Below, one piece after another: positions 49,972 to 63,761 of a stretch of 64,000 bases of DNA. Source of the DNA: Adineta ricciae (taxonomy: Eukaryota). The DNA lies in NCBI GenBank assembly GCA_905250025.1, contig CAJNOJ010000062.1:237974-301973 (forward strand), given 5' to 3'. The notes under the pieces are model-generated. The model had not been told where the DNA came from and searched no databases. It was given only the letters and a program-made list of their open reading frames with translations. The stretch's first letter is position 1. Every line of letters begins with the position of its first letter. A program made the translations under genes and the position numbers.

Positions 49972-51066
49972 TTGTTTTATATTAAAGTTTCATCGCAGAT
50001 GTCCAACACCACTGATTCGACGATGGTCGCACTGTTGAATAATATATCTTCGCGATTGAATAGTTATATTACGTTCTTAGTTTTCCTATTTGGTACTATC
50101 GGTAATATCTTGAGTATAATAGTTCTTTCACAAGCAAGATTACGTGTCAATCCATGTGTTCTCTATTTTCTTGCTTCGTCTATAGCAAGTTTCGGCATTC
50201 TTTTAATTGGTTTACCCTCGCGTCTCATGGCTGGATTGACATCAACCGATCCCACGAACACAAACTCCTTGCTTTGTAAATTTCGTATTTTTGTTCTCTA
50301 CGCATTTCGAACCACAGCTGTGTGGCTTGTTGTTTTCGCGACAATTGATCGGTGGTTCGCTAGTAGTATTAATTACACTCGTCGACGTTTAAGTTCTCGC
50401 CGATTTGCTTACAAAGCTATACTGATCATTCATATTTTATCGTTCATTCTTTGGATCGAATCTCCCTTCTGCTATGGTATTAACGTTCCAGAAGCACCCT
50501 TGCGATGTTATGGCTCGTCTCAAGCTTGTCGCATATTCAACGATCTTGCTTATGCTAGTTCAACGGTGATCATTCCGTCAATTCTAATGCTAATCTTTGG
50601 CTTACTGACGATTTATAATATTCATCGAACACATCAAGCAATCCAACCGATCATTGCAATAGTTACACTGGTCGATCCAACAAAAGCACGTAAACGAAGA
50701 AAAACGCGACGGAACGAGAGGTCTCTTACGCGTATGCTTCTTCTTCAAGTCATTTTCCTCACTTTCTTCTCGTTACCACAAGCTATACATCAATTCTATC
50801 TCACATTTACCCTTCACATAACGAAAAGTTCGCTTCGGATAGCTGTGGAAAATTTCATCGTTAATCTTGACTTTTCTCTTACATATATTGGTAATGCAAG
50901 TGCATTCTACATTTATATTTTAACTGGAATCATGTTTCGTCAGTCGCTTGTCCGACTTATCCGATCGATCATTCGGCAGACAAATCTTTACCTATCAATG
51001 GTTTTCGATGATGTAATAGAATCTATCTGTTTGGTTATTCGTCGACTGGTCGTACGAAGGCATTAA
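49972..51066 (+). CDS. Intronless rhodopsin-like 7-TM G-protein-coupled receptor (364 aa; the true start may be the internal Met of MSNTTDSTM…)
   Basis: Seven hydrophobic helices. GN in TM1, DRW (a DRY variant) at the end of TM3 (FATIDRWFASS), a basic ICL3 (KARKRRKTRRNERS), an N-glycosylation site in the N-terminus, and an NxxxFY-type TM7 (NASAFYIYIL). A single uninterrupted ORF. The ligand class is not inferable. Confidence 0.7.
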   Translation: MFYIKVSSQMSNTTDSTMVALLNNISSRLNSYITFLVFLFGTIGNILSIIVLSQARLRVNPCVLYFLASSIASFGILLIGLPSRLMAGLTSTDPTNTNSLLCKFRIFVLYAFRTTAVWLVVFATIDRWFASSINYTRRRLSSRRFAYKAILIIHILSFILWIESPFCYGINVPEAPLRCYGSSQACRIFNDLAYASSTVIIPSILMLIFGLLTIYNIHRTHQAIQPIIAIVTLVDPTKARKRRKTRRNERSLTRMLLLQVIFLTFFSLPQAIHQFYLTFTLHITKSSLRIAVENFIVNLDFSLTYIGNASAFYIYILTGIMFRQSLVRLIRSIIRQTNLYLSMVFDDVIESICLVIRRLVVRRH

Positions 51067-55046: not shown

Positions 55047-56093
55047 ATGGTGAACAGTACTGAACAAACAGCAGAAGAACTTCGTCATTACGTTCGAATC
55101 GAAAATCTGCCATATGGAATAGCTGCCAAAGACATATCGATGTATTTTAAACCATATGATCGATTTACACGTTTCTACTTAAAACGTCGCGTGGCGAAAG
55201 ATTCACAGGTTCTCTTAACTCATCCAAGGGTTACTGTAGCATATGATAATCCTGATATTGTCGATGAAATCATGATGAACCGACCATATCAAATTGGAGA
55301 TTGTAAACTATTTCTACGACGTTGCCTTCCGATTAGCAAAAAACATCCACTGGAAGCATTTGTTACTGTTCGAAAGATGATTATACGAACAAAAACAGAA
55401 CATCCTCATGATATTTTACCAGATGACATGTCAATTATTGAATACCTCTCGCCTGCCGGTGGAAAAATCGAATATTTTGAAAGATTGGATGACCAAACTG
55501 TTCTGGTACAATTCGATGATTATGATCCGGTAGATATCTGTTGTCTTTCGCGACCCCATTTCATCGGAAGTCAAGAAATTGAAATGGAAAAATGTTTGGA
55601 TGAAAAATTAGTACGAGCATCTATTGAAAAAAAACAGTAATAGCCAAAAAAACGAATTCATCAACTTGAATGACTGTCATAATCTTAATTTAGATTAAAT
55701 CATGCTTCTAACATTGATACTGATAGTGAAGCGGTGTCTACGACGTCGCCTGATCCAGTTTTGTCAATTGATGATCATATCGATCAACTGCGAGCAACTT
55801 ACAGTCAAATGACGAGTGATGCTGAACATCATCATCAAGAATTGGTAGCTTCTCTATCAGCTGAATGGGAACAAACAGCAAAGGAACGTATACGTCTTGA
55901 ACGTTTAGCAATCGATTGTAAAACGGAATGTGACCGATTAGAAAACGAAAATCGGTATTATCAAAAGTTGTATAGCGAAAGTTTAAGAGAGAAACCTGAT
56001 GTTCAAAATGAAGGTGAAGCTAAATTAAGCGATGCTTATCAAAAAACACGAAATGCACAACAAAAATACGAGAAATTATTACAAAATCATTGA
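55047..56093 (+). CDS. RRM-like N-terminal domain protein with a C-terminal coiled coil, probably 2 exons: 55047..55636 and 55694..56093
   Basis: ORF1 (VRIENLPYGIAAKDISMYFKPY…) ends at a stop that overlaps a GTAATA donor. Splicing 57 nt downstream, at acceptor aatttag, continues in phase into the 55734 ORF (…LSIDDHIDQLRATYSQMTSDAEHHHQELVASL…coiled coil…KYEKLLQNH). Without splicing these are two adjacent small ORFs. Confidence 0.45.
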
Positions 56094-57852: not shown

Positions 57853-58893
57853 TTGTCTGTTGTTATTTTATGTACTAATCAGAAAATACTCTTTCAAATG
57901 TCACCAGTATGTTTGGACAGTCTTCCAACCGAAATCTTCTACCTTATTTTTCAATATCTTAATAAAGAACATGTCGCTTATGCGTTCTTTGGCTTAAACA
58001 GTAACTTCACATCAAAAGTTAGGTATTTTATCGGAAACGAATTGAATTTGGCCAAAATTGAAGATGAACAAATCTTTCGTTTTTGTTTAAATACAATTTT
58101 ACCATCAATTGGGTATCATCTTCGACATTTATCGATTGGCTCTCCACATTCATTATCTACCTATCTTCCATACATTCAAAATTTTTGTCCAAATCTGAAT
58201 GTTCTTAATATTCATTGTCAAACACAACATGACGACATTCGTCGTTATGCAGCTTATTTGATTCACTCGCAACTGATGTTTTTCATTTTAATGTACAGGA
58301 ATCAAATTGTTGGAGAAGAAATAAGTATGTGTTTGATTGACCAACACGACGATAAAATCAATCAGGCCATGCCGTTATCGCACTCACTTATTTTGAATTT
58401 ACCATCCTGGAATGATCTCATTCTGTTGAAGCGCTTTTCTGAAAGCAGTTTCTTGTTCGATGGTTTATATATGATCGAATGTGTTGCAACCGGTCATTGG
58501 CTTACGGATGGCAAAGATGATCTATGTGTGATGTCGAAACGACTTCATCGTGATAGTATTTTTTCCATCAAACACGCTGATGTCGATCAATGTTCTCGAG
58601 AATATGAAGTGTACAACGAAGGTACTCAACGTCGACTAACAGTTTTGATACCATATGAAGAAGAAGAGGAACGTTGGTCATCATCATCAATTCTTTCTAC
58701 GCATCGAAAAGAATCTTCACGTTCGTGTTCAAGTTTCACATTCGAAAAACTCGCAAACGATGACATCTTCTATATTCGACCATGTTATTCATATGCTAAA
58801 CGATTGCAGGTCTATGGGAAGCGAATTATCGTCTCACGTTGTGATAACGAAAATGTAACAAATCATTACTTTAAACTCCATCGTGTTTCATAG
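57853..58893 (+). CDS. F-box protein (single exon, 346 aa; probable start at the second Met, 57898)
   Basis: N-terminal F-box consensus CLDSLPTEIFYLIFQYLNKEHVAYAFFGLN. The rest is Leu-rich but has no recognisable repeat family. Intronless. Confidence 0.5.
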   Translation: MSVVILCTNQKILFQMSPVCLDSLPTEIFYLIFQYLNKEHVAYAFFGLNSNFTSKVRYFIGNELNLAKIEDEQIFRFCLNTILPSIGYHLRHLSIGSPHSLSTYLPYIQNFCPNLNVLNIHCQTQHDDIRRYAAYLIHSQLMFFILMYRNQIVGEEISMCLIDQHDDKINQAMPLSHSLILNLPSWNDLILLKRFSESSFLFDGLYMIECVATGHWLTDGKDDLCVMSKRLHRDSIFSIKHADVDQCSREYEVYNEGTQRRLTVLIPYEEEEERWSSSSILSTHRKESSRSCSSFTFEKLANDDIFYIRPCYSYAKRLQVYGKRIIVSRCDNENVTNHYFKLHRVS

Positions 58894-59102: not shown

Positions 59103-60536
59103 TTATTTCCAATCCTTGTCAAGTTCAATAAAACTATCATACACTACAAATTCTCGCACTGTCTTCAATGGTGGATATTTGCGGGCGGTTAAATAATCAA
59201 TCGTTCTATCATTTATTTCGAATGCCGACTTTCGTCCGTTTTCAAATAGACGCTTTGTAATCAGATAATAAGAATTGTCTTCATTCAAACGCTGAAATGC
59301 ATTGCGCGATAAATGTAAACCACGCGAGTAATTACAGATGTTTTCGAGCTCTTTGTACGCTTTTCCATAGTTGTCGATTTTGAGTAAGACTTTGTAATGG
59401 AATTCAAAATAGTTGGATTTATCATCCCAGAATAATTTTTTCTCAATATCAGTTTCTGGAATGCCGTCATTTGATGCCAACGCTTCGATTTTCACGCGTA
59501 CAATGTTGAAATCACGGAAATGCTTATGAACTTCTTCGTTGATTTCTGATACAATTGCCGGATATTCTCCACAATGGTATGATGAAGTCATCAGTTGTTG
59601 ATTTTTTTCTTTTTTATTGTGACTGTTCAAATCAATGAAGATAACTTTATACTTAGTATTCTCGCATGCTTTCTTCAATTTCTCGATCACTTCTTCTGTG
59701 TTGTTTGAACAATCAAGTGTCACATGTGTTTCAAACGTTCCTTTAACAATATTCGTTGGCACAAGTGTATCTAGTTGAGATTTGTGTTCAGCACTTTTTG
59801 CTTTGACAAACTCCAATACACTACAAGGAAGAACGGATATTTTTACTAGGAAAAAAGCGTTTTCGTATGCCATTTACCTTTCCCAGGCGTAAGTTTCATC
59901 ACAATTATCGCGTATTTGTTTCATTTCACCTAGGACATGTGACACACGTTGAAAGTCTTGGATTGATTTTGATTCAATCAACTGTTGACCAAAATCCAAA
60001 TAACGAAAGCCATGAAATAAGTTTTTGAACAAAAAATTTCTATTCGATTCTGTGTCTAAATCGGGCTCTTGACTACGTAAAGGATACAATGTATGATCTT
60101 CAAGATCGTACATTTTTTGAGAGATATAGTTTTCATAGAATGCCACAGTTTTCAATCTTACTGGATCATAATACTTGTCTAGATAAATTTTCTGAAAATT
60201 AATATCTTCCTTGATTTTGAATTCTGCTGGTAAGAATACGCATTCAATAGCAAGCATGTAATTCTTTTTCAGGAGAACTTCAAAATTTTCAACACTATGA
60301 ACACAAACATCGTATTGATTCCATAGCTTGTGCAAGTCAAATTCATGAAAATAATCGAATTCATCGTTAAATACTAATGGTACATTTGCGGACGAACGCG
60401 TCACGATCATAAGGTCACGATCAGATGTTGCCGAGTTTGTACCGTACACCCATGAACCGTAATTGTAAATGCAAGCAACTAGATCTGGATGGATATTGAG
60501 TTCACGTAAAATTGCAGGAATAGCAGAGCGATCCAT
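59103..60536 (-). CDS. Fusion protein: N-terminal Pol-beta-superfamily (minimal) nucleotidyltransferase domain plus C-terminal 2H phosphoesterase domain (~458 aa), 2 exons: 59878..60536 and 59103..59820
   Basis: The N-domain has the NTase signature YGSWVYGTNSATSDRDLMIV ([GS]-x9-D-x-D). The C-domain has two H-x-[TS]-x motifs in the expected hydrophobic context (FETHVTLD and RGLHLSRN), as in LigT/CPDase/AKAP7-type 2H enzymes. The two adjacent ORFs are separated only by a stop that overlaps the ATG. A GTAAAT donor and ccttgtag acceptor make a 59-nt intron that joins them in phase (…DETYAWE-S-VLEFVKAK…). Confidence 0.65.

Positions 60537-61665: not shown

Positions 61666-63761
<2,096 letters not shown>

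Follow-up and report, generated by a model that had tools for sequence, protein, structure and literature searches.

A spliced gene of the bdelloid rotifer Adineta ricciae joins a Pol-beta-type nucleotidyltransferase domain to a predicted tandem ferredoxin-like domain of a large uncharacterised family

Introduction

The minus strand of the window analysed here, a stretch of 64,000 nucleotides from the genome of the bdelloid rotifer Adineta ricciae, carries two consecutive open reading frames, ORF1 (60536..59874, 220 aa) and ORF2 (59873..59103, 256 aa), arranged in such a way that, in the unspliced sequence, the TAA stop of the former (59876-59874) abuts the ATG of the latter without a gap. This arrangement raises the question of whether the locus holds two genes or a single one and, in the second case, what kind of protein it would encode. 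An earlier note, made from the sequence alone, had read it as one spliced gene fusing a Pol-beta-type nucleotidyltransferase (NTase) to a phosphoesterase of the 2H group (LigT, cyclic phosphodiesterase and 2′,5′-phosphodiesterase), suggestive of a module for nucleotide signalling or RNA-end repair, and had added that the gene could be horizontally acquired or specific to the lineage.

Results

The removal of one GT-AG intron, chosen because its splice sites come closest to the consensus of all the GT..AG pairs that leave the frame open, turns both ORFs into a single frame of 458 aa. Exon 1 (59878..60536, minus strand as all features below) comprises codons 1-219 plus two nucleotides and encodes the NTase core and its helical subdomain, whereas exon 2 (59103..59820) completes codon 220 with its final base, continues through codons 221-458 to the stop (59103-59105), and encodes a linker helix followed by the C-terminal domain. 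The intron between them (59821..59877) is a phase-2 intron of 57 nt, GTAAAT...TTGTAG, which holds both the in-frame TAA and the ATG of ORF2, and the junction reads AAG/GTAAAT...CCTTGTAG/T, with slashes at the splice sites. The earlier note was thus right about a GT-AG intron that restores the frame, but not about its size and borders, given as 59 nt with ends at 59878 and 59820. The resulting product is identical to an annotated protein of A. ricciae, P0001 (100% identity over 100% of the length), and the orthologue of A. vaga is interrupted at the equivalent codon by an intron of the same phase. The A. vaga intron is 68 nt long and, since this is not a multiple of three, splicing is obligatory in that species, where no ATG follows the stop either. 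The peculiar 'stop-ATG' junction can therefore be regarded as a by-product of the phase-2 GTAAAT donor, given that the ATG of ORF2 is intronic and absent in A. vaga; the relic of an operon boundary, which was considered as another source of the junction, was rejected for the same lack of an ATG and for the position of the TAA within the donor. In all, the locus holds one gene, which is genuinely spliced and encodes a two-domain protein of 458 aa, as had been anticipated.

The abutting stop and start codons would also be expected if the ORFs were separate genes, or if the locus were a pseudogene in decay or stemmed from contamination of the assembly, the fusion then being an artefact of annotation. 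Against this possibility, besides the position, phase and frame-breaking length of the A. vaga intron, stand two non-rotifer relatives (P0068 and P0081) that are uninterrupted single-ORF fusions of both domains, the retention of both domains in dozens of bdelloid orthologues and paralogues, and the intact state of the NTase triad and of all 16 of the C-domain site residues described below. Base composition is also that of the host, with a GC content of 0.349 for the fusion gene versus 0.359 for the window, and synteny is kept, as the order malic enzyme, NTase-fusion gene and 331-aa gene is shared with A. vaga. Altogether, an artefact of this kind seems extremely improbable. The 331-aa neighbour (57898..58893) is convergent and looks intronless, in agreement with its first description, and is conserved in A. 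vaga, but its assignment as an F-box gene was not supported by Pfam, which gave no F-box match at E ≤ 0.01 and no Pfam match to this gene. In A. vaga, the fusion gene also has a DarT-domain neighbour, for which no counterpart was found within the window.

The NTase signature spotted in the upstream ORF, GSWVYGTNSATSDRDL (G27 S28 ... D39 x D41), is indeed present at aa 27-42 of ORF1 (60411..60458), and it is invariant in 25/25 sequences of the bdelloid set and in a set of 14 sequences that includes non-rotifer relatives. A candidate for the third catalytic carboxylate is D76 (60309..60311), which lies on strand 75-81 of the predicted model and is invariant in the same sets, so that G27, S28, D39, D41 and the putative catalytic D76 are unchanged in all aligned members. 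The Pfam profiles NTP_transf_2 and Polbeta match 14/14 family members (best E values of 5e-8 and 2.3e-7, respectively), with the scores of the query itself remaining below the gathering cut-offs (20.6-23.0 versus 26.9 for Polbeta, and 18.6-20.3 versus 21 for NTP_transf_2). In the predicted model, the NTase core is followed by helices at 114-145, 162-189 and 199-210, and the predicted fold of the N-domain matches those of NTases with a helical subdomain. The invariant motif residues, the profile matches and the fold of the model all agree with the Pol-beta-type NTase of the earlier note, and domain 1 (aa 1-220) is accordingly a member of the Pol-beta superfamily, in which the GS...DxD...D centre is intact and a helical subdomain is present.

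Among named families, the nearest to this domain is RlaP (PF10127), which matches 4/14 family members (best E 4.5e-7) and, alone among the specific Pfam families, can be aligned over ~165 residues of the N-half. The query itself falls below the RlaP cut-off (15 bits and E 0.02, for a gathering threshold of 23 bits), whereas the non-rotifer relative P0068 lies above it (27.9 versus 23 bits). Characterised RlaP enzymes add one or two NMPs to the 3′-OH ends of RNA (preprint PMC12776372), and members of the family also occur in viruses and a few eukaryotes (PMC12776372). As in the query, a minimal NTase core with three catalytic Asp residues precedes a helical subdomain in these proteins; the enzymes characterised in that preprint, however, consist of the NTase and the helical domain only, and lack the C-terminal domain of the query (PMC12776372). 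Unlike RlaP, the rotifer gene has no RNA ligase, RtcA or RtcB gene next to it, a criterion taken from operons that is hardly applicable to a eukaryote; its neighbours are the malic enzyme and the 331-aa gene, with no RNA ligase or other repair gene among them. HalB, the NTase of the Hailong anti-phage system (PDB 9dbh), resembles the query at the level of the fold only, and there is no HalA-like channel partner. Homology to the AbiEii/MenT NTases was considered as well and rejected, as PF08843 (DUF1814) was found in 0/14 members, hhalign of the N-domain profile against six AbiEii partners gave a probability of 0.2%, and PADLOC detected no AbiEii in the query.

The core of the C-terminal domain (aa 249-457; 59109..59735) belongs to an uncharacterised family that carries the label 'AbiEi' in PADLOC. 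Sequence searches of Pfam, NCBIfam and PDB with either the full protein or its C-half gave no match for this domain, and profile searches of PDB were empty or at chance level. The predicted model (pLDDT 84.9, pTM 0.81) shows two lobes with the topology 2 x beta-alpha-beta-beta-alpha-beta, which is shared with its best whole-domain structural matches, the tandem ferredoxin-like barrels of aldoxime dehydratase, chlorite dismutase/HemQ and ACT repeats. Both lobes are homologous to each other (lobe-to-lobe hhalign probability of 94.8%, E 5.5e-8), and this alignment pairs the FETHVTL motif of lobe 1 with the FEFHYK of lobe 2. Domain 2 (aa ~245-458) is, according to the model, an internally duplicated tandem ferredoxin-like domain of a large uncharacterised family.

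The conserved motifs of this domain lie on predicted strands. The first strand of lobe 1 contains FETHVTL (59715..59735), whose E250, H252 and T254 are invariant or nearly so across the family, and the fourth one contains RVKIE (59484..59498), with R328, K330 and E332 invariant in the alignment of stand-alone relatives (A3) and each conserved in 33/34 of the N-extended relatives. In lobe 2, the first strand bears YFEFHYK (59391..59411; E359, H361, K363), with E359 and H361 invariant in A3; the second one bears GLHLSRN (59301..59321), with S391 invariant, N393 nearly so, and H389 often replaced by R, G, Y or A; and the last one bears REFVVYD (59136..59156), with E443 and D448 invariant in A3 and the latter present in 34/34 N-extended relatives. 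From bacteria and phages to eukaryotes, approximately 16 polar positions hardly vary; they include two His, together with roughly five acidic and as many basic side chains, at positions that alternate along the strands. This alternation of E250/H252/T254, R328/K330/E332, E359/H361/K363, S391/N393, T408/R410 and E443/D448 would place them on one face of the sheet. As judged from the alignments, H361, which is kept in 34/34 N-extended and 83/89 stand-alone relatives, is the true symmetric partner of H252, and the domain has a conserved pseudo-symmetric polar site with two histidines, whose degree of conservation suggests catalysis. Several invariant acidic residues beside the ExHxT and ExHxK motifs could indicate metal dependence.

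Such a site bears directly on the 2H assignment. The two strings on which it was built, ETHVTL (aa 250-255) and GLHLSR (aa 387-392), are present in the downstream ORF, H252-x-T254 is truly conserved across the family, and a pseudo-two-fold symmetry with one conserved His per lobe follows the design logic of 2H enzymes, whose active site is two-fold symmetric (PMC5283653). The 2H phosphoesterases (LigT/ThpR, CPDase, CNPase, AKAP7, Acb1) resemble the C-domain in their pseudo-two-fold alpha+beta architecture with one His per half beside a hydroxyl or basic residue, and also in their links to RNA-end and nucleotide enzymes. However, of these two motifs, only the first is conserved in full: S391 is kept in the second one, but H389 is variable (24/34 N-extended and 57/89 stand-alone relatives), and the conserved partner is H361, which belongs to an H-x-K string of the first strand in lobe 2. 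Three H-x-S/T strings are seen in the C-domain for 0.9 expected by chance, which, with eight His in total, makes this pattern weak evidence by itself. Profile and structural searches did not lend any support either, since the Pfam matches of 22 members, with a cut-off as loose as E ≤ 10, included no 2H family, E. coli ThpR aligned with the family profile at a probability of 0.5% in hhalign, and nothing credible was retrieved from PDB with that profile. The catalytic His of 2H enzymes begin strands beta2 and beta6 (PMC5283653), whereas the conserved His of the C-domain would lie on beta1 and beta5 of a tandem ferredoxin-like repeat, within ExHxT and ExHxK motifs that are accompanied by several invariant acidic residues. 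The 2H label had accordingly to be dropped, and a protein combining an NTase with a cyclic or 2′-5′ phosphodiesterase of the 2H type can be considered most improbable. As to the broader suggestion, a phosphoesterase-like partner of the NTase could still take part in RNA-end repair or nucleotide signalling; the domain has its two-histidine polar site and is always found in the company of NTP-cleaving enzymes.

Relatives of the C-domain are numerous (1,004 cluster representatives at E ≤ 1e-3). In PADLOC, the domain matches PDLC02277 (E 8.2e-32, profile positions 2-192 of 195) and PDLC02279 (E 4.2e-27), a label that derives from the location of the bacterial homologues directly upstream of AbiEii NTase genes. 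Among the sampled contigs encoding homologues, L002, L003, L006, L007/L008, L009 and L010, which make up 6/7 informative contexts, have a stand-alone homologue followed immediately and in the same orientation by an AbiEii gene, with the partner translationally overlapping; in L012, an AbiEii-like gene was adjacent and convergent, Ralstonia phage RP13 was uninformative and L011 was too short. The name 'AbiEi' is in this family a positional label, not evidence for a common ancestry with canonical AbiEi. Canonical AbiEi antitoxins are composed of an N-terminal wHTH (COG5340) and a C-terminal antitoxicity domain, and the idea that the C-domain could be an antitoxin of the AbiEi/MenA type was rejected on the basis of the absence of a HTH, of any AbiEi match in Pfam and of any solved AbiEi among structural or sequence matches. 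The rotifer protein resembles AbiE and MenAT modules (AbiEi plus the AbiEii/MenT DUF1814 NTase) in the pairing of an NTase with a partner, but its NTase is not a DUF1814 member, its partner domain lacks the wHTH, its NTase precedes the partner within one fused chain, and its gene resides in an animal nuclear genome. The neutralisation of an AbiEii toxin by the bacterial homologue would not be obviously explained by a simple phosphohydrolase.

Other associations of the C-domain include fusions to Ham1/ITPase in Amoebozoa and myxobacteria, to MazG in phages (phrog_1247, profile positions ~240-441 of 444), to AbiEii in one case, and to RlaP-like NTases in bdelloids and giant-virus-like contigs. 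It occurs in 81 phage records, with a match to phrog_25995 (E 5e-8), and stands alone in large or lytic phages, one copy lying within a nucleotide-metabolism cluster. The label 'MazG-like pyrophosphatase' borne by a Klebsiella phage homologue was not retained, as the match to phrog_1247 involves only the C-terminal half of that profile and the CDS has no Pfam MazG.

Full-length homologues with a named organism were found in bdelloids only, and these proteins are themselves unnamed, in keeping with the earlier remark that the architecture is absent from characterised animal families; a literature search gave no description of the C-domain family in bdelloids, nor of AbiE-like fusions in eukaryotes. 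Outside rotifers, the closest fused forms are encoded by two contigs densely packed with small ORFs, one of 1.62 Mb and the other with an Rpb1-domain gene. A giant-virus-like nature of these contigs (L004 and L014), and with it a giant-virus origin, is something that we infer from their gene content, since scans of a viral contig collection with P0068 and P0081 retrieved no close relative. The suggestion of a horizontal, lineage-specific origin is plausible, and the gene was probably acquired horizontally before bdelloids diversified. All 16 residues of the C-domain site are kept in the orthogroup of the window (16/16), whereas other bdelloid paralogues keep 5-14 of them. H252 and H361 have been lost together among these paralogues (Fisher p 9e-4, a value that ignores phylogeny), some of which have lost the C-domain site and kept that of the NTase.

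Discussion

The explanation that we favour for the whole locus, with a probability of roughly 0.6, is that of a spliced gene in which an NTase close to RlaP is joined to a tandem ferredoxin-like module of the phosphohydrolase type, different from 2H enzymes and acquired horizontally as a 'write and edit' unit. The N-domain would move NMPs from NTPs onto the 3′ end of an RNA. The C-domain would be catalytic and bind phosphate or a nucleotide, most likely as a phosphohydrolase whose target is the nucleotide that the partner consumes or produces: it would either trim or heal a 3′ end that has been damaged or nucleotidylated, or clear away the NMP or PPi product. Both domains together would thus make up a self-contained 'write and edit' unit, for which we infer all catalytic activities and the substrate from conserved residues and family relationships. 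With regard to its history, the gene resembles a conflict module of microbial or viral ancestry that was taken up long ago; most likely it would have been captured from a virus or a bacterium before the diversification of bdelloids, and would then have gained one intron, adopted the base composition of the host and expanded into paralogues, some of which would finally have shed the C-domain site and retained that of the NTase.

A different role for the C-domain is suggested by analogy with the AbiEi/MenA antitoxins, which restrain AbiEii/MenT NTases. The domain could be a non-catalytic module, either antitoxin-like or ligand-sensing as in ACT-like tandem ferredoxin folds, that restrains or gates the fused NTase. 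The rotifer protein would then be a fused switch of the toxin-antitoxin kind, which a nucleotide or a signal of infection would set free. However, the same domain is found with at least three structurally unrelated partner folds (Pol-beta NTases, Ham1 and MazG) and alone in lytic phages, as would be expected from a small-molecule ligand or a reaction common to them and not from a specific protein-protein inhibitor. Some 16 near-invariant polar residues are also more typical of an active site, and neither a HTH nor any similarity to canonical AbiEi families accompanies them, so that a purely regulatory domain seems unlikely.

The nature of the partners also brings up the possibility that the C-domain is a barrel that binds or hydrolyses PPi or triphosphate, convergent with triphosphate-tunnel enzymes, and drives the reaction of its partner by PPi removal without acting on RNA ends. 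The AbiEii, RlaP-like NTase, Ham1 and MazG families split the alpha-beta bond of NTPs with release of PPi, a feature common to all the partners. The mixture of acidic and basic residues with two His at alternating strand positions, together with the phage copy within a nucleotide-metabolism cluster, would fit with such a barrel as well. We nevertheless regard this pathway as distinctly doubtful, and give preference to the editing of RNA ends or nucleotides by a phosphohydrolase-type module.

A more far-reaching proposal, which we put forward tentatively as one that may well prove wrong, is that the C-domain represents an undescribed class of enzymes, an internally duplicated ferredoxin-like phosphohydrolase with a pseudo-symmetric site of ExHxT and ExHxK motifs that edits or reverses the products of NTP-cleaving enzymes, for instance by trimming the nucleotides added by toxins to the 3′ end of tRNAs. 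The domain could then serve as an enzymatic antitoxin against AbiEii in bacteria and as a counter-defence in phages, and bdelloids might have captured a virus-derived fusion of NTase and editor and expanded it, partly with ankyrin or TPR sensor arms, as a family for innate immunity or RNA repair.

In any case, what replaces the wrong 2H label is a family without a name, which counts at least 1,000 clusters of sequences, has no entry in Pfam, NCBIfam or PDB, shows a strongly conserved enzyme-like site and is consistently found beside NTP-cleaving enzymes in bacteria, phages, giant-virus-like genomes, amoebae and one lineage of animals. Residues H252, H361, R328/K330/E332 and E359/K363 are open to experimental testing. 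If the domain were indeed an enzymatic antitoxin or an editor of RNA ends or nucleotides, it would constitute a new way to control NTase toxins and a new counter-defence of phages. As for the bdelloid genes, their intron, host-like composition, synteny, expansion and loss of sites make them a good candidate for the domestication, in an animal, of a conflict module from prokaryotes or viruses, which would bear on how bdelloids use acquired genes in stress tolerance or immunity.

Gene structure and genomic neighbourhood

The gene lies on the minus strand (59103-60536) as two open reading frames, ORF1 (60536..59874, 220 aa), which carries GSWVYGTNSATSDRDL, and ORF2 (59873..59103, 256 aa), where ETHVTL and GLHLSR are found; the TAA stop of the former (59876-59874) immediately adjoins the ATG of the latter. 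All GT..AG pairs of up to 120 nt near the junction that leave a single open frame were considered, and the one with the best consensus splice sites, at 59877..59821 of the minus strand (57 nt, phase 2, AAG/GTAAAT...TTCCTTGTAG/T), was taken as the intron. Its computed removal yields a product of 458 aa, identical (100%) over its full length to P0001, an Adineta ricciae protein already in the databases, which marks the window as DNA of a bdelloid rotifer. In A. vaga, the orthologue (69% identical, on an 18-Mb scaffold) has an intron of 68 nt that interrupts the identical codon in the identical phase (…WE/S/VL…); it breaks the frame, and its stop is not followed by an ATG. Therefore, the "stop-ATG" junction of A. 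ricciae is a by-product of its phase-2 GTAAAT donor. The earlier note had described one spliced gene encoding about 458 aa, a length that is correct, and the single gene appears to hold, judging from the identity to P0001 and the intron position and phase kept in A. vaga. The proposed GT-AG intron does join both frames, but its length of 59 nt and its end coordinates do not stand, each end being one base off. Apart from this small error, the observation was essentially correct.

The order of malic enzyme, nucleotidyltransferase (NTase) gene and convergent 331-aa gene is common to A. ricciae and A. vaga. The malic enzyme gene (window ~61781-63761, plus strand; PF00390 N-terminal domain, E 2.6e-10), divergent, upstream and syntenic with A. 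vaga, is clearly a host-type neighbour. The 331-aa gene (window 57898-58893, plus strand), whose stop lies 209 nt from that of the NTase gene, is kept in A. vaga with 76% tblastx identity. Its convergent position had been rightly noted, but not its F-box identity: a Pfam search at E <= 0.01 gave no match, and the likeness is limited to a LPxEI...IF..L string. The NTase gene (GC 0.349, GC3 0.327) matches the window in composition (GC 0.359).

Two genes from the A. vaga orthologue there is a 561-aa gene (L013, 9537-11222, minus in the locus) with a domain (PF14487) of DarT, a DNA ADP-ribosyltransferase toxin of bacteria; tblastx found no counterpart of this gene in the window. A 7tm_1 gene is also found near this orthologue, and the window contains a 364-aa ORF resembling a seven-transmembrane receptor (49972-51066, plus strand). 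Two more plus-strand ORFs, at 55047-55640 (197 aa, weak PARP14-type RRM match, E 0.005) and 55734-56093 (119 aa, no match in Pfam), may be exons of one gene.

The N-terminal domain

The first of the two domains of the protein (aa 1-220) is a Pol-beta NTase with an intact centre, which confirms the earlier assignment. Residues G27, S28, D39, D41 and D76 are invariant in all aligned homologues, and NTP_transf_2 and Polbeta of Pfam are matched by 14/14 sequences of the family (best E 5e-8), the query alone scoring slightly under the cut-offs. The predicted model is confident (pLDDT 90) and has a helical subdomain after the NTase core. RlaP, a possible family for the rotifer domain, is matched by four of these 14 sequences (best E 4.5e-7) and AbiEii/DUF1814 by none. 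The two-part layout is common to the rotifer domain and RlaP enzymes, which add one or two NMPs onto RNA 3′-OH ends (preprint PMC12776372). The rotifer domain would nucleotidylate an RNA 3′ end.

The C-terminal domain

The C-terminal domain (C-domain, aa ~245-458) had been proposed to be a 2H phosphoesterase, a membership that profile, structure and His-conservation comparisons rule out. Pfam has no family at all that covers it (22 members, E <= 10), its family profiles found nothing credible in the PDB, and hhalign against E. coli ThpR/LigT gave a probability of 0.5%. The AlphaFold model (pLDDT 84.9, pTM 0.81) is a tandem beta-alpha-beta-beta-alpha-beta repeat, for which Foldseek returned only weak matches (chlorite dismutase/HemQ, ACT repeats and a "ferredoxin-like domain repeat", TM about 0.25), with no 2H structure in either match list. 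Its fold is a different one, with the conserved His on beta1 and beta5, whereas the catalytic His of 2H enzymes are at the beginning of beta2 and beta6 (PMC5283653). As for the conservation of the NTase Asp residues and both H-x-T/S motifs, D39/D41/D76 and H252-x-T254 are conserved, but H389, the second His of the earlier note, is kept in only 24/34 N-extended and 57/89 stand-alone relatives; H-x-S/T alone is near chance in the domain (0.9 expected, 3 seen).

Both lobes of the C-domain are homologous (hhalign 94.8% probability, E 5.5e-8), G-x-F-E-x-H-x-T aligning onto Y-F-E-F-H-x-K. Among 170 near-full-length members, E250/H252/T254, R328/K330/E332, E359/H361/K363, S391/N393, T408/R410, E443 and D448 are near-invariant, forming a conserved polar site with residues at alternating strand positions.

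Family and partners of the C-domain

An exhaustive HMMER search with the C-domain retrieved 1,004 cluster representatives at E <= 1e-3, and a second family search 895 clusters at E <= 1e-8. Named stand-alone members, from heterocystous cyanobacteria, one planctomycete and others, are all "hypothetical proteins", and the PHROGs matches (phrog_25995, phrog_22504) have no assigned function. The stand-alone gene is directly followed by a codirectional PF08843 AbiEii NTase gene, the two often overlapping by 4 nt, in two plasmids and in four of five sampled metagenomic or genomic homologues; in one further context an AbiEii-like gene is convergent, and one contig was too short to inform. Two PADLOC "AbiEi" models match the C-domain end to end (E 8e-32 and 4e-27), a label that is due to these adjoining AbiEii genes. 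The domain might also be non-catalytic, either regulatory or antitoxin-like, which we rate as less likely than a phosphohydrolase role. The bacterial partner NTase and the rotifer N-terminal domain (hhalign 0.2%) share a generic fold only and are otherwise unrelated.

An Apyc1-like metallo-beta-lactamase gene (PF23023; L007, 5541-6452) after one bacterial pair and an McrB-like AAA_5 gene (L010, 1563-2858) ahead of another suggest a defence-island setting. An RNA ligase gene is beside, or three genes from, the stand-alone gene in two cases only: a Deinococcus plasmid (L002, 5095-5841; PF09414 confirmed, E 1.4e-16) and phage phiM7 (L016, 786-2024, annotated as phage RNA ligase).

The domain also follows Ham1/ITPase in fusions from Thecamoeba and Stygamoeba transcriptomes and Pyxidicoccus, and in phages it comes after a MazG-like domain (phrog_1247, positions ~240-441 of 444); it is fused directly to AbiEii in one case. 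It also occurs alone in 81 phage records, mainly of large lytic phages, one copy being part of a cluster for nucleotide metabolism and a second having an RNA ligase nearby. The family is always found with NTP-cleaving enzymes, and cleavage of the NTP alpha-beta bond is the denominator common to all partners. Specificity for PPi or triphosphate, conceivable next to such partners, is rated lower still than a non-catalytic role. The C-domain would rather be catalytic: as a phosphate- or nucleotide-binding module it would act on the substrate or product of its partner, the likeliest role, at roughly 40%, being that of a phosphohydrolase or phosphoesterase.

Bdelloid paralogues and origin

Named full-length homologues are all from bdelloids (Adineta, Rotaria, Didymodactylos), with numerous paralogues, some of them with ankyrin/TPR N-terminal extensions. 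In P0020, P0042 and P0048 (758-817 aa), ankyrin repeats precede the two-domain unit, and TPR repeats appear in the precomputed Pfam list of P0020; such proteins are reminiscent of eukaryotic sensor-effector immune proteins. The orthogroup of the window keeps 16/16 C-domain site residues and other paralogue lineages 5-14, H252 and H361 tending to vanish jointly (Fisher p about 9e-4, not corrected for phylogeny). The NTase motif residues are kept in all aligned members, including paralogues that lose C-domain site residues. A second subfamily (P0023-P0045; columns 556-590 of protein alignment A1) has a conserved basic tail (…KYRIGFKNRK…RS), which is lacking in the window's orthogroup. P0008, from Rotaria sp. 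Silwood1, contains a 42-residue internal repeat of a helical-subdomain segment (A1 columns ~218-259; YLDFAEQLIQTRSIHDYKRV…), either a true tandem duplication or a gene-model artefact.

Outside rotifers, the fused architecture is found only in metagenomic proteins (~33% identity). One gene is on a 1.62-Mb ENA contig where small Rho_N/SAP-like paralogues form arrays, at least eight tandem genes with weak matches lying upstream (L004, 1-8000), an expansion that looks giant-virus-like. Another shares its contig with an RNA-polymerase Rpb1-domain gene, a DUF2828 gene and dense small ORFs, and both contigs would be giant-virus-like; scans of a collection of viral contigs yielded no close relative. 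Taken together, the distribution, conserved intron, synteny and host-like composition fit a horizontal acquisition before bdelloid diversification, followed by domestication and expansion.

The C-domain belongs to a widespread family, unnamed and probably enzymatic, that is tied to NTase toxins and nucleotide-cleaning enzymes. In the rotifer gene it is fused to an NTase and would have been domesticated in an animal, the product being a variant of the already known NTase-plus-partner conflict modules.
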